Shown: positions 33,164-47,542 of the stretch, in pieces | How positions within the stretch are numbered: the stretch's first letter is position 1 | How the letters are laid out: each line of letters starts with the position of its first letter | Assembly: GCA_005223185.1 (NCBI GenBank) | Contig: NJBN01000001.1 | Span: 441,365-505,364 of the forward strand | Direction: 5' to 3' | Source of the DNA: a candidate division LCP-89 bacterium B3_LCP | GTDB lineage: Bacteria; Electryoneota; B3-LCP | DNA: 64,000 bases | Made by a program: the position numbers and the translations under genes | The notes under the pieces: generated by a model | What the model was told of the DNA's origin: nothing | Database searches by the model: none | Seen by the model: the letters and a program-made list of their open reading frames with translations, nothing else

Positions 33164-33192
33164 TTGACTAAGCGATTTATTTTTTGTATATT
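33164..33192 (+). promoter_or_regulatory. Sigma-70-like promoter TTGACT-N17-TATATT
   Basis: ttgact 33164-33169, 17-nt spacer, tatatt 33187-33192. The ORF-track start at 33164 lies inside the -35 box. Confidence 0.5.
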
Positions 33193-33226
33193 ATGTCCAC
33201 ACACTTCCATAAGAAAGGATGAGAAA

Positions 33227-36200
33227 ATGAACCGTCTGATGTTATCTATTTACATACTACTGTTCGGGTTTATTTCTGCCGTTCGTGCAGACACCACATT
33301 TGTTGCTTCAGGTCCGGTATCCGGCGCCTGGACTTCAGCCGGCAACCCTTACTTCGTCTATGAAGGTGATATCGTGGTTCCGGACGGCAGAAGCCTGACC
33401 GTTCTGCCCGGTGTTGAGGTGCTGTTCACCGGCAACTACAAACTGACTGTAGAAGGATTGCTGAACGCCGAAGGCACTGAAGCAGATTCGATAACTTTCA
33501 CCAGGGCTTATTCAACCGAAGAATCCAAGTGGCGCGGTTTCCGCTTCGATGCTGCAGATGATGGCTGTACTCTAAAATACTGCCGCATAGAATACGCCAA
33601 AGGCACCGGCCCTTATCCCGATGTGCGCGGTGGAGGGGTGTGGATCGAAAACTGTTCGGTGCTGATAAGGAATTGTACCATAGCGCATAATTACACGCAT
33701 AACGAAAACTACAACGGTTCTGGTGGTGGTATCTTCTTAAATCAGAGTGATCAGAGTATCATCGAATACAACTATATAACCCAAAACCAGGCAGACAATG
33801 GCGGCGGTATATGTGTCGGGCAGAATTGCTACACCATAATCCGGCATAATACTTTCGATAACAACCAAACCTACTCATCCGGGGGAGGTATATACGTCTC
33901 AGCCAACGGAGAATCCGTCATCAATGATAATATATTCGTGGACAATCACTCCAGCGGCATTTACGGCGGAGGAGCTATAAACCTGTGGAGCGCTACCTGG
34001 ATATACGGAACGTTTTCCTATGTGTACAACAACCTGATAATGAACAATACCGCCTCTTCAGCCGGCGGAGGCATCTATCATCGCTACGAATCTTCGATAG
34101 TTTATAATAACACTCTGGTTGGCAATCAGGCCAATCAGGGAGGTGGAATTTACGTTTTGACTTTTTCCGATCTGCCGCCTACTATTTATAATTCCATAAT
34201 TTGGGGAAACAATGCCCCGGTGGGCAGCCAGATTTATCTCGATCCTCAATCGGGGAGCGTCGCCAATATCAGCTATTGCGACGTACATGCCGGATGGCCA
34301 GGTGTGGGAAATATCAATTCCGATCCGGAATTCGTGTCAGGGTCCGGTGGCGATTACTACTTGAGTCAGATCGCTGCAGGACAGCCTGTGCAGAGTCCCT
34401 GTGTGGATGCCAGCGATCCCATTTCAACCATGATAACCGGCACTACCAGAACGGACGGCGTCCAGGATGAGGGTATCGTGGATATGGGGTATCATTATGC
34501 CATCGAAACGGTTGTCAGTATGAACGTGGTTCTGACGCCTTTGAACCCGCCCATCCAGATTCCGGCTATAGGGGGAACTTTCGAATTTGACGTCTTAATC
34601 GAAAATCTGGAGTCATCGCCCGTTCTTTGCGATATCTGGACAGAAGCTATCTTACCCAGTGGACAACCATATCCGCTGATCTTACGGGAAGACGTGAATA
34701 TCCCTGCAGGGGGCAGTATTGAGAGGACGTTATCTCAGAACGTACCCGAGAGCGCCCCAGCAGGATCGTACAGCTACCATGCCTATGTCGGTGATCATCC
34801 GAACATGGTTTACGCAGAGGACAGCTTTACTTTCGAGAAGTTGACCGGTTTAGAAGCCACACGGATATACATGGACGGCGATTTCAGCGATTGGGAATCA
34901 GTTGAGCCACTGCACATCGACCCGGTTGGTGATCAATTGGCCGACAGCCTGGATTTTGGCACCCTCTGGGTGACTAACGATGAACGCTACCTGTTCCTCT
35001 GTCTGGAAGTGGGAGCGGAGATGATGATACAGGTGGAGCATGACTTCGATCTCTACCTGGATACGGATAACGACATCTCCACCGGGCTGTCCATCAACGG
35101 AATAGGTGCTGATCTGGATTATAATTTCAACGATGGAACCGGCAACTTTCTCGCGGGAGGAACTACCTATACTATCTACCATGAAGATCTGGGACTTGCC
35201 ACCGCACCCACCTACTCATCAAATATCTACGAGATCGTAATCGACAGGGAAGCCTATCCAGCGGGTCAATATGAACTGTTCACCAGCGATACCATATCCG
35301 TTCTCTTCCACGATAGCGGTCCCGGGCAGGATTACCTTCCCGATGAGGGGACTACTATCCAGTATGTGTTCGATGATTCCCCCTTACCAACACTACCGGT
35401 TTTATCGCTTCAGAAGCAAGATCCATCGCATATCCGCATCATGTCCTACAATGTCTGGACGGATAACCTCTTTGAACCCGACCTTGAAGATGAGTACACG
35501 CGCATTCTGAATGCCATCGAACCGGACATAATCGCTTTCCAGGAAATCTACAATCACAATGCTTCCCAGACAGTTGACCAGGTGACTTCAATGTTAGGAG
35601 GACAGTGGTACGGCTACAAGATCAATCCCGACATAGTCCTGGTCAGCCGATATGAAATAGCGGAGACATTCAACGTCAACAATGACGGCAACGGAGCATT
35701 CCTCCTCGATCTGCAGCCTGACTACGACTGCCAGATGCTGGTTATAAATGCCCATTTGCCAGCAGGACAATCCAATACTGGCAGGCAGCATGAAGTTGAC
35801 GCCATAATGGAATTCATCCGGGAAGCCAGAGAACCCGGCGGTGAACTGGAGCTGGAAGTGAACACCCCTATCCTGATCACAGGTGATATGAATTTCGTGG
35901 GTTATTATCAGCAGTTGTTTACCATGGTTACAGGTCAGATCTACTACACAGGTACGTATGGACCGCCGTTTGAACCTGACTGGGACGGCACCAATCTTAC
36001 CGATCTGATTCCACGTCATACTGATACTCCCTTCTATTTCACCTGGTATAATGAATCGAGTTACTACTGCCCCGGCCGCCTGGATTTCATGATATACAGC
36101 GATTCCGTGCTGGAAGCCTGGAACAATTTTGTCCTCTTCACGCCGGGAATGTCACCCGATTCCTTAGCTGCCAACGGCCTGCAATGGGATGACGTTGTAA

Positions 36201-36571
36201 ATGCTTCTGACCATTTACCCGTAGTAGGTGATTTTGTACCCAATCCGGGCACAGTCTTGGCGGGAAATTATAACAGCCAGCAACCAGCCCGGTTCGCACT
36301 ATTACAGAACTATCCCAATCCGTTTAATGCATCAACAACAATCAGTTTCCAGTTGCCAGTTTCGAGTCTGGTAGAACTGGATGTCTTTGACATCTCCGGT
36401 TCCCGCGTAGGGGTCGCCTGCCCCTTCGGGGGTCTTGCGCCGACCCGTCAATATTCACCCGGCACCCATCAAATCACTTTCGATGCATCGGGATTAGCAT
36501 CTGGTATATACCTTTACCGACTGCAGGCTGGCGAGTTTTCCGCGATAGGGAAGATGGTGCTGGTGAAGTAA
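33227..36571 (+). CDS. Secreted multidomain protein: parallel beta-helix region + EEP (endonuclease/exonuclease/phosphatase) domain + T9SS C-terminal domain
   Basis: Start ATG 33227 (aagga RBS; signal peptide MNRLMLSIYILLFGFISAVRA). Beta-helix-like repeats (GGGVWIENCSVL, GGGIFLNQSD, GGGICVGQNC, GGGIYVSANG). C-terminal half is paralogous to the 29925 gene with the full EEP motif set (MSYNV, DIIAFQEI, INAHL, TGDMNF, SDHLPV). C-terminal Por_Secre_tail. Confidence 0.7.
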   Translation: MNRLMLSIYILLFGFISAVRADTTFVASGPVSGAWTSAGNPYFVYEGDIVVPDGRSLTVLPGVEVLFTGNYKLTVEGLLNAEGTEADSITFTRAYSTEESKWRGFRFDAADDGCTLKYCRIEYAKGTGPYPDVRGGGVWIENCSVLIRNCTIAHNYTHNENYNGSGGGIFLNQSDQSIIEYNYITQNQADNGGGICVGQNCYTIIRHNTFDNNQTYSSGGGIYVSANGESVINDNIFVDNHSSGIYGGGAINLWSATWIYGTFSYVYNNLIMNNTASSAGGGIYHRYESSIVYNNTLVGNQANQGGGIYVLTFSDLPPTIYNSIIWGNNAPVGSQIYLDPQSGSVANISYCDVHAGWPGVGNINSDPEFVSGSGGDYYLSQIAAGQPVQSPCVDASDPISTMITGTTRTDGVQDEGIVDMGYHYAIETVVSMNVVLTPLNPPIQIPAIGGTFEFDVLIENLESSPVLCDIWTEAILPSGQPYPLILREDVNIPAGGSIERTLSQNVPESAPAGSYSYHAYVGDHPNMVYAEDSFTFEKLTGLEATRIYMDGDFSDWESVEPLHIDPVGDQLADSLDFGTLWVTNDERYLFLCLEVGAEMMIQVEHDFDLYLDTDNDISTGLSINGIGADLDYNFNDGTGNFLAGGTTYTIYHEDLGLATAPTYSSNIYEIVIDREAYPAGQYELFTSDTISVLFHDSGPGQDYLPDEGTTIQYVFDDSPLPTLPVLSLQKQDPSHIRIMSYNVWTDNLFEPDLEDEYTRILNAIEPDIIAFQEIYNHNASQTVDQVTSMLGGQWYGYKINPDIVLVSRYEIAETFNVNNDGNGAFLLDLQPDYDCQMLVINAHLPAGQSNTGRQHEVDAIMEFIREAREPGGELELEVNTPILITGDMNFVGYYQQLFTMVTGQIYYTGTYGPPFEPDWDGTNLTDLIPRHTDTPFYFTWYNESSYYCPGRLDFMIYSDSVLEAWNNFVLFTPGMSPDSLAANGLQWDDVVNASDHLPVVGDFVPNPGTVLAGNYNSQQPARFALLQNYPNPFNASTTISFQLPVSSLVELDVFDISGSRVGVACPFGGLAPTRQYSPGTHQITFDASGLASGIYLYRLQAGEFSAIGKMVLVK
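36407..36446 (+). repeat. Palindromic element embedded in frame in the T9SS C-terminal domain coding sequence
   Basis: Same element as 32885-32926 (gtaggggtcgcctgccccttcgggggtcttgcgccgaccc); encodes GVACPFGGLAPTR. Confidence 0.65.
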
Positions 36572-36580
36572 AAACAAACC

Positions 36581-36618
36581 GTCATTGCGAGGACGGCGCA
36601 GCCGGACGAAGCAATCCC
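36581..36618. repeat. GTCATT-type palindromic repeat (gtcattgcgaggacggcgcagccggacgaagcaatccc)
   Basis: Same family as 6758-6800. Confidence 0.55.
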
Positions 36619-36839
36619 ATAATAATTAATACTATAGGGTGGGGGTGCTTGTCTGCCTCGGGCAGGCTTCTCCCGCCTTTTCTAATTCCGTAGTCGGGGT
36701 CGTCCCTGACCCCGACATGAGGTAGCGCGGGAGCTATATGGGCAGGCCAATCCCTGCGCGAGATATTCACAGGATTTTCCCTTATCAGGGACAATGAGCG
36801 GTTTGGATGCTGCGAAAATTTGCCTTTTTTTTAAAATCC

Positions 36840-36868
36840 TTGACAATATGCTATATTATTTGTATATT
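36840..36868 (+). promoter_or_regulatory. Sigma-70-like promoter TTGACA-N17-TATATT
   Basis: ttgaca 36840-36845, 17-nt spacer, tatatt 36863-36868. Confidence 0.5.
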
Positions 36869-36915
36869 GCACTGTGATCGCAGCAGATTTAAATTCAATT
36901 AATCATGGAGGAGTT

Positions 36916-37734
36916 ATGAGAAATGCTATGCTATTTATAACCGTCCTGATTACTGCAGGTGTAGTGATTTGCTCCGCTGGTACGCAGGGCGTTATAAATC
37001 CCATTCCAACGGTAGTTGACGGCACTACCCAGGGAGATTTCATGGACTGGAATTGTTGGGAGGGTTTCCGACCCATTGATGATCCGACCGACGTGATTGA
37101 TACCTTGTGGTGGACAGGCAATATCGAATACCACATCTTCGGCACTCAGTCCATAAGCTGGGATCCTGATTTACCGGAGATCGGTGGGGTGGTAATGGAG
37201 ATCAAGTACGGTCTATGGAATTCGCCGCAGGTGGGATTGGCAGTTTCGGTTAATGGTAATCCAGTGGGAGTTTGCATGGCCAATTATGGCTATATATCGC
37301 CAGGGCCAAAATACGGGCGAGCACACATTTCCGACTACATCGTAGCGGGGCCTGACCTGATCGAGATCGTAGCTTCCTATGGTGGTGAGGCTGTAATCGG
37401 TTATGTAGCAACCGCAGTTTGGGTTGATGGAGATAATCTTGCTGGTGAGGTTGAAGACACTTTCAAGCCGATGGATTTTGAATTAATAGGTCCTGCTCCT
37501 AACCCCTTCAATCCGACCACGGTGATTGGTTTCCAACTGCCAAATGCCGGGAAAGTCAACCTGGCCATTTACGATATTTCGGGCAGACAGGTCGCCGAAT
37601 TGGTCAACGGCTGGCGCGATGCAGGTATGCATGAAGTAACCTTCGATGCATCTGATTTAGCTTCAGGCATCTACCTTTACCGCTTACAGGCAGGAGAGTT
37701 TTCAGGGGTAGGAAAGATGGTGTTAGTGAAGTGA
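36916..37734 (+). CDS. Small secreted protein of unknown function with T9SS C-terminal domain
   Basis: Start ATG 36916 (ggaggag RBS; signal peptide MRNAMLFITVLITAGVVICSAG). C-terminal Por_Secre_tail (APNPFNPTTVIGFQLP…YLYRLQAGEFS…KMVLVK). Confidence 0.55.
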   Translation: MRNAMLFITVLITAGVVICSAGTQGVINPIPTVVDGTTQGDFMDWNCWEGFRPIDDPTDVIDTLWWTGNIEYHIFGTQSISWDPDLPEIGGVVMEIKYGLWNSPQVGLAVSVNGNPVGVCMANYGYISPGPKYGRAHISDYIVAGPDLIEIVASYGGEAVIGYVATAVWVDGDNLAGEVEDTFKPMDFELIGPAPNPFNPTTVIGFQLPNAGKVNLAIYDISGRQVAELVNGWRDAGMHEVTFDASDLASGIYLYRLQAGEFSGVGKMVLVK

Positions 37735-37784
37735 CGCACTGTGTGCGTCATCCTGAACGTAGTGAAGGATCTCATTTCAATTGT

Positions 37785-37814
37785 AGGGGCAGACCTCTGT
37801 GTCTGCCCTTTTTG
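37785..37814 (+). terminator. Rho-independent terminator
   Basis: gggcagac-ctctgt-gtctgccc followed by ttttt. Confidence 0.6.
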
Positions 37815-37894
37815 TTTGCTCCCTACCGTCATCGCGAGGAATCCGTCAGCCGACGGATGACGAAGCGATCCCAAAGCTCTTCAGATAAATCTCA

Positions 37895-38002
37895 TTTTCA
37901 CTGCTGTCGGGTCTCCGTACCCGACAGATCCCGTAGTCGGGGTCGCCCCTGACCCCGATACCATGCCGTAGGGCGGGGGTGTCCGTAAGGACTCCAATGG
38001 AG
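37895..38002. repeat. 108-bp direct repeat, copy 1 (composite of palindromic modules)
   Basis: ttttcactgctgtcgggtctccgtacccgacagatcccgtagtcggggtcg.ccctgaccccgataccatgccgtagggcgggggtgtccgtaaggactccaatggag; near-identical to 38349-38456. Confidence 0.8.
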
Positions 38003-38348
38003 TAGGCGGGGTGGCATGCTTCTGGATCGCCTAAGGCGAATCGAAGCATGTTTAAATCGTCCAGATATTGACCCCACAGCAGATCTGTGGGGCACCTAAC
38101 AGACGAATTCAAGTTTGTCATTCCGCACTTGATGCGGAATCCAGAATACCCGGAAATATCCGAACGGCTCCTATGGAGAATTCCTGAGCTAACCAATTTC
38201 TGTCCCGTGAAGCGGGACGTAAAGGTTTAAGCATCCCGCTTGAGCGGGATAGCATAAAATTAGCCCGGAAATTCATTTCCGGGTGGTGTAAGGTAATTAA
38301 TCAAAATGTCATTCTGAGCAAGCCGAAGGCGCAGCGAAGAATCTCCTG

Positions 38349-38456
38349 TTTTCACTGCTGTCGGGTCTCCGTACCCGACAGATCCCGTAGTCGGGGTCGT
38401 CCCTGACCCCGATACCATGCCGTAGGGCGGGGGTGTCCGTAAGGACTCCAATGGAG
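38349..38456. repeat. 108-bp direct repeat, copy 2
   Basis: Near-identical to 37895-38002. Confidence 0.8.
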
Positions 38457-38750
38457 CTTCCCCCGCCCTTTATTTATCGTTCCACTGGTACAAATTTGTC
38501 CGCCAATTTGTATTGTCCGCTAATTCTGTCATCGGTATTAAGATTACGGTAGATCGCCTGGATGACTAAAATGTCGTAGTCAGGGGTGGATGGGATAGTT
38601 TTCATGTGCATTATATAGTTGGATTATGAGGGGAGATTGTTGTATTTGAACAAACAATTGAGGTGAGTACTTATATATAATATACAACAATTCATCAGAA
38701 AATGCAAGGAGTTTTGGCAGAAATATGGAGTGGGTGGTGGTTCTTTAAAG

Positions 38751-38915
38751 GTTTCAAATCCCCCTTGGTCCCCCTTTGGAAAAGGGGGAAACTGCGTAAT
38801 TCCCTGCATACCCACTAACACCCCCCTTTCCCAAAGGGGGGAGTCCCAACTTGTTGGGACGGGGGGATTTCGGGACGGGGGGATTTCGGGACGGGGGGAT
38901 TTGGGCGGGGGGATT
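38751..38915. repeat. G/C-tract-rich ~165-bp direct repeat flanking the 3' side of the DUF559 gene
   Basis: ggtttcaaatcccccttggtccccc…ccctgcatacccactaa…cccccctttcccaaaggggggag…, then 3 tandem units of gggacggggggatttc. About 85-90% identical to 39275-39425. Confidence 0.8.
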
Positions 38916-39261: not shown

Positions 39262-39274
39262 GCTTCATTGTTGA

Positions 39275-39425
39275 GGTTTCAAATCCCCCTTGATCCCCCT
39301 TTTCCAAAGGGGGAAACTGCATCTTTCCCTGCATACCCACTAATTCCCCCCTTTCCCAAAGGGGGGAGCCCCGACTTGTCGGGGCGGGGGGATTGGACGG
39401 GGGGATTTTAGACAGGGGGATTAAA
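39275..39425. repeat. G/C-tract-rich ~150-bp direct repeat flanking the 5' side of the DUF559 gene
   Basis: ggtttcaaatcccccttgatccccc…ccctgcatacccactaa…cccccctttcccaaaggggggag…gggcggggggatt…; same orientation as 38751-38915. Confidence 0.8.
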
Positions 39426-39509
39426 ACAGCAACCTAACCCACCCCAGAGGGGTGGGGCACCGGTGCGAGGGCACTCCTTCAGAGCTTCCACCTTCGGCGA
39501 AGGCTTTCG

Positions 39510-40412
39510 TCATTGAGTTGATGTTGGTACATCGGTTCTTTCGAGATCGTCCACATCTGCTTCAATTGTTCTTAACCGGTCATCACGCTGAATTCTCCAC
39601 ATAGCGATGACTAATTCTGAAATCAATATCGTCATGAACATCAATACATAAGCTACCAGACTCCAGTTATCAGATCCGCTCTTACTGGATATACATGCAA
39701 AAACAAATGCAGTAGATGAGAAAAAAAGGATTATTACATGACGCAGCTTATGGGACCGCTTGAGAAAGTAATATTCTAGCTCATCTATGGCACTATTATA
39801 CAGCAGAAGGCGTCGATCGTTTTGGTGTAATAGTAATTCATCATATAGCTGCTGTCTACTCTTCTCTATGGCTGCTAGAATTTCCTTATTAAGATATTGG
39901 TTTGTTAGCAGGCTGACAACGCCATAAATGGAAAAGAATATAGAGTAGAAAAACACATCCCTTGAAGCGAAGAATAGGACACTCAGGAGGACACCCAGCG
40001 AAAGTATCATTGCGGTTTCTCGCAAATCGGATGGCGGCTTGTATCTCCTAGGATCAAGCCACCGCCATAAGATAATTAATTCATGCCTTGTTGCCCACAC
40101 CCATAACCAAACAAGGACTCCTGTTAAGGCAAATAGTGCTACATAACATATAACTAGAATATCCGGCCAGGATTCCTTGATACGGTCGATCTCAGATAGC
40201 AACATTCCTGCTCCGAGCAGAGATGTGATAATACCTATGCCCCAACGCCGCGCAACGATCAGCCCTTCACTCTTTTCCTTAAGATTTGGTTTGTAGTTCA
40301 CGATGGTTCTCAGTTTATATTGATTTATATTCTTTCCTGTCAGGTTTTGATCGCCGAAGGCGGGTGTGACCTGATGGCTTTTATCATGCTGTAACGTCTG
40401 GTCGCGGTTCAA
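39510..40412 (-). CDS. Polytopic membrane protein of unknown function (third gene of the three-gene operon)
   Basis: 300 aa with about 6 hydrophobic helices (e.g. ILVICYVALFALTGVLVWLWVWA, LVAYVLMFMTILISELVIAMW); no recognisable motif. Confidence 0.5.
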   Translation of the reverse strand: MNRDQTLQHDKSHQVTPAFGDQNLTGKNINQYKLRTIVNYKPNLKEKSEGLIVARRWGIGIITSLLGAGMLLSEIDRIKESWPDILVICYVALFALTGVLVWLWVWATRHELIILWRWLDPRRYKPPSDLRETAMILSLGVLLSVLFFASRDVFFYSIFFSIYGVVSLLTNQYLNKEILAAIEKSRQQLYDELLLHQNDRRLLLYNSAIDELEYYFLKRSHKLRHVIILFFSSTAFVFACISSKSGSDNWSLVAYVLMFMTILISELVIAMWRIQRDDRLRTIEADVDDLERTDVPTSTQ

Positions 40413-40462
40413 GCAATACAGAGCCTTGAACTTACGAATAAAAAAATGTAAATATCAGGATT

Positions 40463-41050
40463 TTACTCTTCTGCATTCTTTTTATTGGTACACCGCCCAG
40501 CGTAACATTCCCATCCCCTTTCATTCATCGCTCTTTGGTCACTAATTCTCCTCTCAATAAATTCATTTAAACGACTATGGACATACCAGCTATCTAAATA
40601 GATCTGTGCAAAACAATCTGGATCCTCGGATGGATCACGCCCTTTGTATTTGATACTGCCGGTTTTTTTATGAGCAAATTCATTTCTGAGATTGTTTATG
40701 ACTGGAATATATTCATCTAATTCGGTTGCAACAAATGATTTAAAGCAAGGACGTAGAAGTTTATGCACTTGACTAAATGACATTCGTTTGACAATTCTAT
40801 CTAGTTCCTTTAGGCAACTTTCATGAAGTTCGTCATACCCTTCCATCCATAAAATTAGATCGGAAAGGTGCTCATATAGAATTTCTTTCATCATTGATTC
40901 AATTGATGCGTGAATGTCAAGTACAATAGAACGAACAATGTGATTCATATCTGTTCTATCAGAAGTCCAGGATTTCACTAATGCAAGTACTTCTTCTTTC
41001 GTTGAACAGCCTAATATGTTGATATATTTTCTATGATCGGTCTTAGTCAT
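40463..41050 (-). CDS. Hypothetical protein with a HEPN-like Rx4H motif (second gene of the three-gene operon)
   Basis: 195 aa, helical-looking; motif INNLRNEFAHKK fits the HEPN Rx4-6H signature. Motif-level inference only. Confidence 0.45.
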   Translation of the reverse strand: MTKTDHRKYINILGCSTKEEVLALVKSWTSDRTDMNHIVRSIVLDIHASIESMMKEILYEHLSDLILWMEGYDELHESCLKELDRIVKRMSFSQVHKLLRPCFKSFVATELDEYIPVINNLRNEFAHKKTGSIKYKGRDPSEDPDCFAQIYLDSWYVHSRLNEFIERRISDQRAMNERGWECYAGRCTNKKNAEE

Positions 41051-41149
41051 AGTTTATTAGACTCCCTCCGATACAACATCCATTTCTTCGTCGAGTTTGT
41101 ATGACATAGTTTTAGGTGCTTAACGAACGCTGGTATAAAACGGGTACTT

Positions 41150-41893
41150 TTAAGGACTTGTGGTGCCCGTAGAGGTAACCGTTGTTGTTATACCGTTGGG
41201 ATCGGTCGGATAAGGATAAGTTTGTGGATCATTACCAAGTATTTTTTCAATTTCTTCTTTGAAATGATTTCGTATATTCGCAGTGCTAGAGGGTGGATCA
41301 CAATCCAATATGCTGAACATACTGTGTGACCGTGCGTGTAATGGTTTTCCTGAATGTAGTGTATCTAGTCTTTTGAGAGCTGCATCAATAGAATTCACAG
41401 CTATTAGTTTTGAGTACCAATTGCCTAGTTTAACAGCGTTGTCACTGTTTTCTCTAAAGTAGATTTCTATTGCAGCAGCAATCTCGGATACAAAGTCAGG
41501 CAGATTTAAAAAAACACGATGTCCAGCACCATTTACTTGTTTTCTCAAATGCATAGGTGATTGATCGTGGTGTAAGATAAAACGAAGCTTTACTTGTTGT
41601 GTCGCATTCGACTGTCCATACGTATGAATCAATGAATTTCGTATTCGCCATAGATCATCATCCAGACTACCATACTTTGCATTTAGTTTCTTCATATATT
41701 CAGAAATAAATTTCTTAAAATCATTTCCTGTGTTTCTGTCTTTTGTAGGGTCCAGCCCTAATCCCATATAGTCTATACAGCAAAATGAAAGAATATATGC
41801 GCCCATTAGAGATCTTCCTTCAATTGCCCTTATGATATCAGCCACTGCCGTATCAAAGAAATTAAATTTTAATATGTTATAATCATATGCCAT
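41150..41893 (-). CDS. Hypothetical protein with a HEPN-like Rx4H motif (first gene of the three-gene operon)
   Basis: 247 aa; agggag RBS; motif DLWRIRNSLIHTYG fits Rx4H; C-terminal low-complexity Thr/Pro tail. Motif-level inference only. Confidence 0.45.
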   Translation of the reverse strand: MAYDYNILKFNFFDTAVADIIRAIEGRSLMGAYILSFCCIDYMGLGLDPTKDRNTGNDFKKFISEYMKKLNAKYGSLDDDLWRIRNSLIHTYGQSNATQQVKLRFILHHDQSPMHLRKQVNGAGHRVFLNLPDFVSEIAAAIEIYFRENSDNAVKLGNWYSKLIAVNSIDAALKRLDTLHSGKPLHARSHSMFSILDCDPPSSTANIRNHFKEEIEKILGNDPQTYPYPTDPNGITTTVTSTGTTSP

Positions 41894-41960
41894 TGGAATT
41901 ACTCCCTGATTTAATTTTGGTTTATGCCTGCTTTACGTGATTCTCAATCACTATCCCTAA

Positions 41961-41989
41961 AATATACCCCAATTCATAACACAAGTCAA
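41961..41989 (-). promoter_or_regulatory. Sigma-70-like promoter TTGACT-N17-TATATT for the three-gene operon
   Basis: Minus-strand reading cttgact-tgtgttatgaattgggg-tatatt; about 60 nt upstream of ATG 41893. Confidence 0.5.
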
Positions 41990-42019
41990 GAAGAATATTT
42001 ACCAGATGTGTTTCATTCA

Positions 42020-42048
42020 ATAAAAAAGGCACCCCAGCGGGGCGCCTT
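42020..42048 (-). terminator. Rho-independent terminator (minus strand)
   Basis: Minus-strand hairpin ggcgccccgctggggtgcc followed by ttttttatt; about 450 nt downstream of the P5C dehydrogenase stop and just upstream of the operon promoter. Confidence 0.6.
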
Positions 42049-42156
42049 CTGTCCTCTGTTCTCAATTCCCCCACTTTACCCTTGCATTCCAGGCAATTTT
42101 GTTGTATATTATATATATACTCCAATTATCAAATTTCCATCCTCAATCCTCTCACC

Positions 42157-42191
42157 AACTGCTAACTGCTAACTGCTAACTGCTAACTGCC
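42157..42191. repeat. Tandem heptamer (aactgct/ctaactg) x5
   Basis: Five perfect contiguous 7-bp units in the non-coding region downstream of the P5C dehydrogenase gene. Confidence 0.9.
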
Positions 42192-42487
42192 AAAAACCAT
42201 CTTCTTGACAACGACACATCTGTCACAGGCGACAAATATGACCGACAACCTAAGACGCATGAAAAACAATCACATAACCCCCAAAAACGACAGATATGGC
42301 GCAATTTCAGATTTTGTGCGTGGGAGTCAAAATTTCTGTCGCTTTTGTGCTGAAAGGCAAAGTCACCTTCGTCAAATCTGTCGCCAATCTGAAATGTAAA
42401 ATAATCGGCTTCGCGCCCATAAAATAATCCCTCTGACTCCAGGAGCCGGGGGATTATTCTGTCTTCTGTCTTCTTTATTCTTTTTCC

Positions 42488-44343: not shown

Positions 44344-45447
44344 CTAGTTGGCGCTTACTCGCAATAGAATGTCTTCGCGAGCCTTCTTCAACCTACTAAG
44401 CATCGGGCCAATCTGACCACTCATTTGCCCCACAAAATCATATAAATCTTGCTCGGAGTCCGGTATTTTATAACCTTTTGGACTACTTGCTATAATCACT
44501 CCTTTATCTCTAAGCTTTGCAATTACCTTTGAGCGCAAGTAATGAGTAGTTACTTTATTCGGGCTAACCTGATTTAGAATTCTCTTTAGCTGTTCAGTAA
44601 ATATGTACCTTTTTGAATTTACATATCTAAAGTGGTAAAGTAAATATTTCAACGCTTCTAGCTGATCTGTTATAACTTCATCTTTAGTGTCCATATTTTC
44701 TTCAATAAAATTTGATGCTTTATAAAGTGCTAGCTCACAGATAAGATTATCAAAATCGTTTCCTTTAGTAATCCATGACTTATTTGTAGAAGGGTGACTT
44801 ATTGGTGGCCATGTGTCAATTAGCAAAGTCCGATTTAATAAAATATTCATAAAATCTTTTGAAACGGTTGTGGATTTTTTGGGATCAAAATGTCTTGCGA
44901 GTGTTCCAGATATAAAGTCAGCAAGTTGAACTATTGGTTGTTCATGACTCGCAACAAATCCGAATTCTGCTCGGATGAATAGATCAGGTACATGATTCTC
45001 GTTTACATATTTTTGAAAGCCTTCCATAAAAGATCTTCCCCCGTATTCATCGGATATTATAAACATTTCGGGGAAGGTACGATATAACTTTCTGTAAAGC
45101 AATCCATGCGTAAACTTAATAAATGGCTCTCTGTAAATTAATCCACTGCTTTCCCATACCTCACGTTTATCAATTATAATAGAATAAAATTTAAAATCTA
45201 ATCCAGCAATATCCTTTAATATCTTTCTCCTTCTTTCATCATTTGAACCAACATTCTTGGACTTCATCTCCCCAGTGCGAAAATGGATTTTTCGTATTTC
45301 ATCTGCATCCCGTTCCAATTCTACTAAATGATCGTGTTCTACTATAATAGCAGTAATAATAAAGCATGTTGACACTCCTCCTTTTGAAACATCCAAGTTA
45401 GGGTCTCCATACGCGTCAACGAATGCATACTGAGGTTCTAAGTTCAT
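44344..45447 (-). CDS. DUF3800-like protein with C-terminal extension
   Basis: 367 aa; N-terminal YAFVDAYGDP and later SHEQPIVQLADFISGTLARHF resemble remembered DUF3800 signatures (DESG-like start, Q.AD..AG…R). Family call from memory only. Confidence 0.5.
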   Translation of the reverse strand: MNLEPQYAFVDAYGDPNLDVSKGGVSTCFIITAIIVEHDHLVELERDADEIRKIHFRTGEMKSKNVGSNDERRRKILKDIAGLDFKFYSIIIDKREVWESSGLIYREPFIKFTHGLLYRKLYRTFPEMFIISDEYGGRSFMEGFQKYVNENHVPDLFIRAEFGFVASHEQPIVQLADFISGTLARHFDPKKSTTVSKDFMNILLNRTLLIDTWPPISHPSTNKSWITKGNDFDNLICELALYKASNFIEENMDTKDEVITDQLEALKYLLYHFRYVNSKRYIFTEQLKRILNQVSPNKVTTHYLRSKVIAKLRDKGVIIASSPKGYKIPDSEQDLYDFVGQMSGQIGPMLSRLKKAREDILLRVSAN

Positions 45448-45713: not shown

Positions 45714-45998
45714 ATGGAAATAATTAATCTACAAGCGTTAGAAAGATATATCAAGAAGCACAGGACTGCGGAAGAAGTAATAAAGAACTGGGTGGTGTTT
45801 GTCGAAAATGCAGATTGGGATCGTCCTTACGATGTCAAACAGGATTACGATGCAAGATTTATTAGTTCTAAGCGTGTGATCTTCAAATTAGGTAACTCTT
45901 GGCGTATTGATACACGAATTGCTTATAACAGTAGAAAGATTTACGTTATCCGTATTGGAACTCACGAAGAGTACAATAAATGGAAATATAAAGATTAA
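45714..45998 (+). CDS. higB: Type II toxin HigB (E. coli YgjN-like RelE-fold mRNA interferase)
   Basis: 94 aa; C-terminal KRVIFKLGNSWRIDTRIAYNSRKIYVIRIGTHEEYNK aligns with E. coli HigB (HYVFNVGGNELRVVAMVFFESQKCYIREVMTHKEYD). Confidence 0.8.
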   Translation: MEIINLQALERYIKKHRTAEEVIKNWVVFVENADWDRPYDVKQDYDARFISSKRVIFKLGNSWRIDTRIAYNSRKIYVIRIGTHEEYNKWKYKD

Positions 45999-46012
45999 CT
46001 AGAGAGTCAGAT

Positions 46013-47542
46013 ATGAGCCTAAAAGTTATAAAGACTCAAAATGATTACGATGAGGCTCTTCGGGAAATTGAAGAGTTCATCATACTCGATCCCGTTCCTG
46101 GGACAGAAGAAGCCAATCGCCTGGAAGTCCTGTCGGTGCTGATAAAGGCGTATGAGGATGAGCATTTCCATTTTGACCTCCCCGATCCGATTTCAGCAAT
46201 CAAATTTGTTATGGAGCAACGTGGCCTTAAGCGGTCTGATTTGGTGCCCTTTATTGGTTCCCCTTCAAAAGTGTCAGAAATACTATCTGGGAAAAGGCAA
46301 CTCAGTCTCTCAATGATGAGACGACTCAATGAAGGATTGAATATACCCGCAGAAGTTTTGATGAAAGAACGTCAAAAGGAAATACCTGAAGAAACTGATA
46401 TTCAGTGGAGTAAGTTTCCGTTAACCGAGCTGAGTAAAAGAAACTGGTTCCCCGAGTTCTCTGGGACGCTACCTAAACTTAAGGAATACGCTGAGGATTT
46501 AATGCGACCGAAAATAGAGTTACTTTTAAAAAATTGTACGATGATTCCTCTTCAAAGGACTTCAAGTATAAATCTGCGAAGTGACAAAGTGATAGATCTT
46601 TATTCGTTAGTTGCATGGCAAACCAGAGTTGTTGAAAAAGCTAAAGGAATCAGCCTTGAAGTGCCTTATTCTGGGAAAATTGCCAAAGCACTTCTCAAGC
46701 AAATTGCAAGTCTGACAGTTCTGGATGAAGGACCTCTAGCAGCACGAGAGATATTATATAAAAACGGTATTCATCTTGTTGTTGAACCGCATCTAAAGAG
46801 TACATACTTAGATGGTGCAGTAATGCTTCTCAATGATGGCACACCAATAATCGCTTTGACACTTAGATACAACCGACTTGATAATTTCTGGTTTAGCCTT
46901 ATTCATGAATTAGTACACTTGCATAAACATCTAGATGAGGAAAACTCATACTTTTTTGATGATTTTGAAGGAACAGAGAATCTACTAGAAATTGAGGTTG
47001 AAGCAGACAAACATGCGGGTGAGATTTTAATACCAAAGAGTAGTTGGAGTATAGAAAGATCCATTTATTATTCTACAAGAGGAACTTTTGATGAGATTAA
47101 ACAATTGGCCAGAAAACTAAATGTACATCCCGCAGTCTTAGTAGGCCGAATTCATCATGATTCTGGGGATTTTAGGAGATATCATAGGCTTCTGGGGAAA
47201 GGTATCCCCCAAGAGCTATTTTCAGATTCGTCTGTTAACTATTTGATTAGACAGCCAAATATAATAAATAACAGAAAGGGTACAAAAATGGGAAGAATGC
47301 GTAAAACAATTCGTTATAAGCTTTACGATGGTAGAAAAGACGTTTACCATGGTATCACAAAAAACCTTGAGCGAAGAGAACAAGAACACGAACGGGATGG
47401 CAAAAAGTTTTCACGGGTAGAGAGGGTGGGACCTGCCGTAACAGTTGAAACTGCAAAACAATGGGAAGAACAATCTCTGAAGAGTTACCGGAAGAATCAC
47501 GGGGGTAAGAATCCAAAGTATAATGAGGATAAAACTGGATAA
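46013..47542 (+). CDS. Fusion protein: HigA-like HTH antitoxin + ImmA/IrrE (DUF955, COG2856) HEXXH metallopeptidase + C-terminal GIY-YIG-like module
   Basis: Residues 1-120 match HigA (IGSPSKVSEILSGKRQLSLSMMRRLNEGLNIPAEVL vs E. coli IGSKSMVSRVLSGKRKLTLEHAKKLATRFGISPALF). Central region carries LIHELVHLHKH and EADKHAGEILIP, typical of ImmA/IrrE Zn-peptidases. C-terminal ~90 aa carries IRYKLYDGRKDVYHGITKNLERREQEH, resembling the GIY…YIG…R…E/H core. One uninterrupted 509-codon ORF starting 15 nt after higB. Confidence 0.7.
   Translation: MSLKVIKTQNDYDEALREIEEFIILDPVPGTEEANRLEVLSVLIKAYEDEHFHFDLPDPISAIKFVMEQRGLKRSDLVPFIGSPSKVSEILSGKRQLSLSMMRRLNEGLNIPAEVLMKERQKEIPEETDIQWSKFPLTELSKRNWFPEFSGTLPKLKEYAEDLMRPKIELLLKNCTMIPLQRTSSINLRSDKVIDLYSLVAWQTRVVEKAKGISLEVPYSGKIAKALLKQIASLTVLDEGPLAAREILYKNGIHLVVEPHLKSTYLDGAVMLLNDGTPIIALTLRYNRLDNFWFSLIHELVHLHKHLDEENSYFFDDFEGTENLLEIEVEADKHAGEILIPKSSWSIERSIYYSTRGTFDEIKQLARKLNVHPAVLVGRIHHDSGDFRRYHRLLGKGIPQELFSDSSVNYLIRQPNIINNRKGTKMGRMRKTIRYKLYDGRKDVYHGITKNLERREQEHERDGKKFSRVERVGPAVTVETAKQWEEQSLKSYRKNHGGKNPKYNEDKTG

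Follow-up and report, generated by a model that had tools for sequence, protein, structure and literature searches.

A window of 64,000 nucleotides was analysed from a 636-kb contig of candidate division LCP-89 bacterium B3_LCP, a host placed in the Fibrobacteres–Chlorobi–Bacteroidetes (FCB) group. It contains three small genes that lie head-to-tail on the minus strand. Gene A (CEE37_01915, 41150..41893) encodes a protein of 247 aa, gene B (CEE37_01910, 40463..41050) a protein of 195 aa, and gene C (CEE37_01905, 39510..40301) a protein of 263 aa. An earlier note on this DNA described the three as a self-contained operon encoding two HEPN-like proteins and a six-helix membrane protein, and proposed that they form one undescribed defence or toxin system. 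A check of the open reading frames (ORFs) recovered three co-directional frames on the minus strand (41150-41893, 40463-41050, and 39510-40412), and the peptides that drew attention to the motifs, WRIRNSLIHTYG in A and LRNEFAHKK in B, are both found in the translations. The proposed new system is unsupported, however. A and B are new divergent members of the very well-known HEPN class, and the locus is probably part of a variable defence/accessory island where three genes, each inherited independently, happen to be arranged head-to-tail, rather than one dedicated system.

The evidence that carries this interpretation is the absence of co-occurrence. Besides the window, about 24 loci were compared. 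A relatives are present in 11 of them and C relatives in 12, and a B relative is present in a single informative locus, as only one of the two B loci (L005) has flanking sequence. When A, B, and C were searched by tblastn against every fetched locus, each family was found only in its own loci. In none of these loci do relatives of two different families stand together, and the trio, whose conservation elsewhere the earlier note had made the touchstone of its proposal, is not conserved as a unit. Even the closest relatives (61% identity for A, 62% for B, and 70% for C) lack the partners. The closest A relative comes from another LCP-89 genome (L001); its contig ends 173 nt after A without a B start, and the gene upstream belongs to DUF4145. 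The sole B relative (L005) has a different upstream gene and no C within 408 nt downstream. The closest C relative (70%) has no B within 1221 nt upstream. The PADLOC check that had been suggested gave no family matched by A, B, or C at E<=1 (PADLOC-DB v2). Searches of mobile elements were also negative: tblastn found no A, B, or C in plasmids (PLSDB) and no A or B in GenBank phage records, and pattern scans of IMG/VR viral contigs found no A, B, or C.

The surroundings of the A relatives vary. Cytochrome-c-like and transporter genes accompany the A relative in one locus. In Leptospira kobayashii (L003), the A relative lies in an island with TIR, Fic, RelE/HTH, SIR2, and HNH genes. The contexts in four loci from metagenome-assembled genomes of Bacteroidota (L011-L014) differ, one having SIR2 and HNH genes and another a beta-lactamase-family gene. 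Elsewhere the neighbour is an NmeDI-type restriction enzyme, or the neighbours are DUF6602, IS200-type transposase, DUF5677, and PIN genes. In L. yanagawae (L004, 5172-8427), four genes are tightly packed with gaps of 10, 17, and 24 nt and are followed by a Type ISP restriction-modification (R-M) enzyme. The run encodes, in order, a 272-aa protein, the A relative, a 337-aa protein with two transmembrane (TM) helices, and a 230-aa protein, none of them with a Pfam family. L004 is the only locus where A looks operonic.

What kind of protein is A? No model in Pfam, NCBIfam, or PADLOC matches it. It belongs to a family with 22 relatives (32-61% identity in the alignment) and, like B, it has a very patchy and rare distribution. 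The Rx4H motif of A is R85-N-S-L-I-H90, and the family consensus is R-[N/C]-S-L-[I/V]-H-x-Y-G. R85, S87, L88, H90, Y92, and G93 are invariant in the 23 family sequences, position 86 is either N or C, and D41 in helix 2 is nearly invariant in the same alignment. In the AlphaFold2 model (pLDDT 87.6, pTM 0.85), helices at 5-25 and 29-47 are followed by an insert helix (56-65), a helix at 73-91, a beta-hairpin insert, and a helix at 131-148, and the C-terminal 25 residues are disordered. The motif R85-H90 sits at the C-terminal end of helix 73-91, ahead of the beta-hairpin insert. According to the published description of HEPN domains (PMC3710099), the motif lies where helix 3 ends and its R is followed by a polar residue, helix 2 carries an acidic residue, and inserts separate helix 2 from helix 3. 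The four-helix up-down bundle, the motif, the insert, and the acidic residue of A all agree with this description, and an Rx4-6H motif with a polar residue after the R is conserved throughout the family. The assignment of A as HEPN-like thus holds, given its intact motif and the HEPN-like fold of the model.

The affinity of A to particular HEPN families is more elusive. A Foldseek search of the PDB with the A model produced no significant match, and the A and B profiles gave only chance matches (E>1) against PDB sequences. The comparison of A with B by hhalign revealed no relationship. UniRef gives two Leptospira members of family A the names pEK499_p136-like HEPN and DUF4145 HEPN, which are, like A, stand-alone HEPN families found in varied defence operons. 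The Pfam models of pEK499_p136 HEPN and DUF4145 match neither A nor any of its 22 relatives at E<=1, and comparing family A with a genuine DUF4145 neighbour by hhalign gave E=0.046 with a probability of about 1%. A is best explained as a stand-alone HEPN-fold protein that founds a small family without a Pfam model.

The A-family genes behave as autonomous single-gene cassettes: the identity between two metagenome contigs that carry them (L024 and L025) ends at an attC-type junction, beyond which the neighbouring gene is swapped. The two loci encode an identical A protein, and their DNA is 100% identical through the gene and a further 142 nt. They diverge completely at ...GCTGCCAAAC|GTTA... (...CAAAC|GTTA), and beyond this point lies an NmeDI-type restriction enzyme in L024 and a 274-aa protein in L025. 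The 3' flank of A in L025 (697-847) folds into a long bulged hairpin (fold z = -6.8). It contains a 9-bp R''/R' stem in which GCAGCTAAC pairs with GTTAGCTGC and a 12-bp L''/L' stem in which GGCAGCGCAACG pairs with CGTTGCGCTGCC. An attC site consists of inverted R''/R' cores around AAC...GTT together with L''/L' stems in a bulged hairpin, and cassette boundaries fall at GTT. By its sequence and predicted fold, the L025 hairpin has this anatomy of an integron attC site, with the putative exchange point in the GTT core. A structure-based scan (a strict consensus misses the L025 site) found attC-like sites also at L026 2601-2667, equivalent to L027 1125-1191, in a co-directional array around an A relative, and at L003 5803-5972, directly upstream of the A relative of Leptospira kobayashii (AP025028.1). 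The latter site points to an integron-like array of cassettes in the L. kobayashii genome.

Chromosomal integrons are reported to contain single-gene HEPN cassettes, AbiV and the HEPN-only 'Esos' among them, that work as anti-phage units (bioRxiv 10.1101/2024.07.02.601686). The A relatives likewise are flanked by attC-type hairpins, with the neighbour swapped between otherwise identical contigs; the likeness to Esos is one of cassette setting. The A gene of the window differs from integron cassettes in that it has no attC-like site and appears to carry its own promoter. The whole window has 0 attC-like sites (shuffles average 0.15), and the idea that the trio block is an integron array was rejected on this ground.

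AbiV, a HEPN RNase of Lactococcus (PDB 9bj5/9bj6/9bj7), is the best structural match of A, but the Foldseek match is not significant, the sequence identity is 13%, and the Pfam AbiV model does not match A. In AbiV, the canonical H is typically missing and an alternative H serves instead (PMC3710099), whereas A has a canonical, invariant RNxxxH. A also differs from AbiV in its beta-hairpin insert after the motif and in an extra C-terminal helical region. AbiV requires an upstream antitoxin RNA (bioRxiv 10.1101/2024.05.05.592566), and nothing comparable is conserved for A. The comparison raises the possibility that A is the toxin of an AbiV-like type III toxin-antitoxin (TA) pair, held in check by RNA from the ~470-nt non-coding region upstream. 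This stretch (42021-42487, from the aldehyde dehydrogenase gene to gene A) is apparently non-coding and contains a (GCAGTTA)x5 array at 42157-42190. It may encode a small RNA, a point noted since AbiV is controlled by RNA from upstream. The array would fit such a pair, as would an otherwise orphan strong terminator (42050-42022) directly before the promoter candidate of A. However, the upstream regions of the A relatives are unrelated to one another and measure 10 to 335 nt, and the upstream region in the window has no Rfam match. Repeats in type III antitoxins of the ToxI type are ~36 nt, and the 7-nt repeats found here differ from them. A type III pair therefore appears extremely unlikely.

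B matches the Pfam family HEPN_RiboL-PSP (PF18735) with E=1.4e-5 and 25.5 bits over 136 of the 191 profile positions. Because the score falls under the Pfam gathering threshold (25.5 vs 28.4 bits), B is not certified as a member; judged by this match, it is probably a distant relative of RiboL-PSP-HEPN, and its UniRef label is also RiboL-PSP-... Weaker sub-threshold matches were obtained with HEPN_Apea (E=0.012), Abi_2 (E=0.045), and the NCBIfam HP0729 family (E=8e-4). Thus, three HEPN families of Pfam and the HP0729 family align over the motif region of B, all below threshold. The motif is R122-N-E-F-A-H127, with the polar residue after the R, and it is preceded by E51-S-M-M-K55 (Ex3K). Both motifs are kept in the sole known B homologue (P0025, 62% identity). 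Together with the profile matches, they bear out the description of B as a HEPN protein.

The RiboL-PSP-HEPN family bears the Rx4-6H motif and is distantly related to AbiD/AbiF (PMC3710099). The match of B to PF18735, its best profile match, spans most of the domain, with RNxxxH and Ex3K in register. Unlike RiboL-PSP-HEPN, B has no L-PSP endoribonuclease fusion and no ParB operon, and its C-terminal tail is cysteine-rich. At the level of sequence, B is best explained as a stand-alone divergent HEPN protein whose closest kin would be the RiboL-PSP-HEPN / AbiD-AbiF group.

Do the two HEPN proteins work together? One model is that A and B form a paired-HEPN module, either as a heterodimeric RNase or with one HEPN protein restraining the other, that C is a bystander, and that the window is one case of a wider HEPN pairing. 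HEPN genes are indeed adjacent both in the window (A and B) and in L001 (the DUF4145 gene and the A relative). In L005, a 192-aa protein (202-780) with an N-terminal TM helix and the Rx4H-type motif MRMLRNKVTH lies 370 nt upstream of the B relative and matches DUF4145 with E=8e-4. In L025, the 274-aa protein that follows the A relative (864-1688) contains QIRNAFAH, and its BLASTP match to B is marginal (E=0.008, from a single comparison). The GC content at third codon positions (GC3) of A and B is also nearly equal (0.27 and 0.30). However, the partner family differs each time, and no partner pair is significant by hhalign, whether A is compared with the DUF4145-type neighbours or B with the L005 and L025 neighbours. 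A hidden Markov model (HMM) of B scored the 274-aa neighbour in L025 at 2.8 bits, a score that 1 of 200 shuffles reached. Moreover, the two L025 genes are separate cassettes split by the attC-type site, and the identical A lies beside a restriction enzyme in L024. A and B both keep intact catalytic motifs, and known HEPN enzymes act as homodimers or through internal tandem domains (PMC3710099). Since defence islands often contain HEPN genes, some adjacency is expected by chance. A dedicated pairing of A with B is improbable on this balance.

The third gene required a correction. The earlier note had C start at TTG 40412 (the ORF 39510-40412), but the true start is GTG 40301, which yields 263 aa. 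NCBI annotates 263 aa, and the close homologues all start at an equivalent M/V-N-Y. Nucleotide similarity among the C loci of the four closest relatives begins exactly at GTG 40301, and the DNA upstream is unrelated. The six TM helices ascribed to C are confirmed by six hydrophobic segments in the hydropathy profile and by AlphaFold helices. The protein is predicted to reside in the inner membrane with both termini inside (N-in/C-in, positive-inside rule), and a charged helical hairpin of ~50 residues lies between TM4 and TM5. Conserved motifs are WxWxT, WLDPxxYxPP, SRDP, KSRxRL, RPHxxR, and SE...WRxxRDxxLR. No HEPN-like or other recognisable soluble domain was found in C, and C matches neither SLATT nor other TM effector models in Pfam and PADLOC. 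The C family is without annotation in Pfam, NCBIfam, PADLOC, and PHROGs, and no source names any of its 71 sampled members.

The family is large, widespread, and well conserved. A word-indexed search found three relatives only, whereas a full HMMER profile search reached far wider and yielded, as clusters at 50% identity, 330 at E<=1e-3, 149 at E<=1e-10, and 55 at E<=1e-30. No Pfam family covers the 71 sampled members, which gave scattered noise including one SLATT_6 match (E=0.014). Nearly all members are stand-alone proteins of ~260 aa. A few relatives of ~500 aa (P0095, P0103, P0104, P0106, P0112, P0131, and P0142) are head-to-tail duplicates of the six-TM module with 12 TM helices, and Pfam returned only noise for these fused forms. 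Because such fused tandem 12-TM duplicates exist, the 260-aa form is suggested to work as a dimer.

The genomic loci of the C family were sought with the closest 20 sequences, the 71-sequence alignment being too diverse for that purpose. The C-family gene is solitary in all 12 loci. Where the upstream DNA is readable, ~190-205 nt of it is unrelated between loci, and in L007 this stretch exceeds 300 nt. Some neighbours are IS3 or IS30 transposases, an OLD-family nuclease, a DUF6765 gene with TIR, and AbiTii. Others are genes for rhomboid, M23 peptidase, PAP2, glycosyltransferases, PPK/PPX, and FtsI; envelope and housekeeping surroundings of this kind were found in L019, L022, and L023.

Transcription signals around the trio were examined next to the claim of a self-contained operon. 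A sigma-70-like promoter candidate, TTGACT-N17-TATATT (41961..41989, minus strand), lies upstream of A. It is the top match of its kind in the region (10/12) and lies 68 nt upstream of the ATG of A, so its sequence and position are as had been claimed. Its function is less certain, as promoter-like sites in the region occur at chance level (8 found vs 10.4 +/- 3.3 expected in shuffled sequence) and promoters of an FCB-group host may depart from the sigma-70 consensus. The site is therefore best taken as the putative promoter of A. Directly upstream of it, the minimum-free-energy fold of 41894-42130 contains a strong intrinsic-terminator hairpin, AGAAGGCGCCCC-GCU-GGGGUGCCUUUU followed by a U-run (42022..42050, minus strand, 12-bp stem), which insulates A from upstream transcription. 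After C, a weak terminator-like hairpin, CCCCACCC-CTCT-GGGGTGGG with a T-rich stretch 9 nt further on (39423..39457, minus strand), was read by eye as a candidate terminator, and neither the terminator scanner nor the minimum-free-energy fold reproduces it.

The spacers between the genes are 99 nt (A-B) and, with the C start at GTG 40301, 161 nt (B-C), which is loose packing for an operon. The terminator scanner detected no terminator in either of them. Co-transcription of the three genes is therefore possible but unproven, given the strong hairpin before the promoter candidate, the weaker hairpin after C, and the lack of terminators in the spacers; the self-contained operon of the earlier note goes beyond what the sequence and the loose spacers can demonstrate. 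A separate promoter for C (CTGACA-N18-TATAAA, 40343-40314) was also seen by eye but is not relied on, because the GTG would then be left with next to no leader.

A perfect 19-nt inverted repeat, TATATATAATATACAACAA, is present at 38672-38690 and 42099-42117. It encloses the low-GC block DUF559-C-B-A of 3.4 kb, with 0 such matches expected by chance. On the inner side of each copy, at a distance of 8-10 nt, AATGCAAGG is also present, and on the outer side the similarity continues imperfectly for a few bases. The repeat may mark the boundary of a cassette, serve as an inversion site, or be a regulatory element that was duplicated.

These features bear on the proposal that the genes form a lineage-specific three-gene system, in which sensing or execution falls to one HEPN RNase or to both and the six-TM protein is the membrane effector or anchor, in the manner of Cas13b-Csx28. 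The three genes are co-oriented, with the promoter candidate before A, the insulating terminator upstream, and no scanner-detected terminator between them. They lie in a low-GC island next to PD-Lambda-2, DUF3800, and DUF559 genes and within the inverted repeat. The A relative in L004 is followed, after a 17-nt gap, by the protein with two TM helices. There is also a precedent in the coupling of the HEPN RNase Cas13b to the membrane pore Csx28 (bioRxiv 10.1101/2021.11.02.466367). However, no two of the families occur together in the ~24 other loci, nearest relatives included. The C-family genes are solitary and often stand in housekeeping surroundings, the A-family genes are single-gene cassettes, and the spacers of 99 and 161 nt are wide. 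No PADLOC model matches A, B, or C, and C is without a recognisable soluble domain. The likeness to Cas13b-Csx28 / Csx27 is superficially one of the same parts list, that is, a HEPN RNase (or more than one) encoded next to a multi-TM protein. Csx28 consistently co-occurs with Cas13b and carries a divergent HEPN domain, whereas C has no such domain and is never found with A or B relatives elsewhere. A dedicated three-gene system is thus unlikely. A bolder conjecture is that different HEPN families are recurrently paired (the window, L001, L005, and L025) as heteromeric or mutually regulating RNases and that a six-TM member has been recruited as effector, which would make the trio a non-CRISPR analogue of Cas13b-Csx28; it is offered as a long shot.

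The reading of three independently inherited genes is based on the lack of co-occurrence, the autonomy of A, and the autonomy of C. The unrelatedness of families A and B by hhalign and the GC3 of C (0.41 vs 0.27 and 0.30 for A and B) were also counted for independence. How would A and B act? By analogy with characterised HEPN enzymes, each would form a homodimer in which the two Rx4H motifs come together as an RNase site that needs no metal. In such a site, the H would activate the 2'-OH, and the R and the N that follows it would stabilise the transition state, leaving 2',3'-cyclic phosphate ends. Each protein alone would then be a single-gene RNase of the abortive-infection or toxin type that arrests translation upon phage infection. 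C would be a separate member of a six-TM family, a probable dimer, with a role not tied to the HEPN proteins. The mechanism is taken from PMC3710099 and from the work on AbiV (bioRxiv 10.1101/2024.05.05.592566), so that RNase activity, dimerisation, a defence role, and a trigger are ascribed to A and B by analogy. What the present analysis itself contributes are the gene structures, the motif conservation, the fold of A, the sub-threshold profiles of B, the size and independence of the families, and the cassette behaviour of the A relatives.

Several observations weigh against three independent genes. A second HEPN-type gene adjoins an A or B relative in L001, L005, and L025, which is more than chance might lead one to expect. 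The sampling of B is thin, with a single informative locus, and several contigs are short. With one good promoter match before A, a terminator upstream of it, and none detected by the scanner between the genes, the three may be co-transcribed here. Finally, the 19-nt inverted repeat around DUF559-C-B-A could mean that the block was acquired or moved as one piece.

A different objection is that the genes have no role in defence at all. A and B would then process RNA in a housekeeping or regulatory capacity, C would be a protein of the envelope, and the three would simply lie in an AT-rich region. The envelope and housekeeping surroundings of the C-family genes in L019, L022, and L023 are in line with this view. 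However, A and B are rare and very patchy, and A relatives occur among R-M, TA, SIR2, and HNH genes and in cassette arrays. The composition of the genes is also foreign, with a GC3 of 0.27-0.30 against 0.61 in the housekeeping neighbour. A purely housekeeping function is thus very unlikely.

If the three genes are indeed independent, A and B enlarge an already very large class by two further divergent candidates, each a single-gene HEPN (Abi-like) protein. Family A, which has no Pfam model and includes integron-type cassettes, would be a reasonable candidate for a compact stand-alone anti-phage RNase. Family C is the more useful by-product and merits a family definition, though nothing ties it to defence. 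For genome scans the case carries a caution: co-oriented small genes that share a motif within a defence island are no evidence of a system without co-occurrence elsewhere.

The island setting itself is as the earlier note had it, in that Pfam confirms the DUF559, DUF3800, and HigB_toxin neighbours. The GC content of the trio patch is about 0.38-0.41 compared to ~0.48 in the remaining window. The GC3 of the DUF559, DUF3800, and HigB-like genes is 0.29-0.35, and that of the adjacent aldehyde dehydrogenase gene is 0.61. Because this high-GC housekeeping gene intervenes, the island is split in two. On its far side, the DUF3800 gene (44344-45447, 367 aa) lies between the aldehyde dehydrogenase gene and a PD-Lambda-2-like pair, and its product has a weak match to the PADLOC candidate PDC-M04A (E=4.8e-7). 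The pair (45714-47542) consists of the HigB-like gene (94 aa) and the next gene (509 aa, HTH_3 and Peptidase_M78), which match PD-Lambda-2 component A with E=1e-21 and component B with E=9.5e-136, respectively (PADLOC). The B-like protein is ~100 aa longer than the model, and a third component was not identified. An Rfam scan of the whole window gave no match, and a tRNA scan found none.

Repeats also occur on the side of C. A 121-nt direct repeat with 89% identity (38749-38869 / 39274-39394) stands on both sides of the DUF559 gene and includes the palindrome TCCCCCTTTGGAAAAGGGGGA. It is adjoined by a G-rich 16-nt tandem array (GGGACGGGGGGATTTC, 3.9 copies, 38856-38915). Further along, two secreted proteins (33164-36571 and 36874-37734) share similar C-terminal sequences, which explain a 103-nt repeat with 79% identity (36467-36569 / 37630-37732). 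For the second of them, the only one of the two that was scanned, Pfam reports a sorting domain for type IX secretion (Por_Secre_tail), which fits an FCB-group host. A 108-nt direct repeat with 99% identity occurs at 37895-38002 and 38349-38456, and a 31-nt element, ATCCCGTAGTCGGGGTCGNCCCTGACCCCGA, is present in three copies at 36685, 37928, and 38382. Lying in the apparently non-coding stretch 36580-38460, the 108-nt repeat and the 31-nt copies look like a dispersed repeat family.

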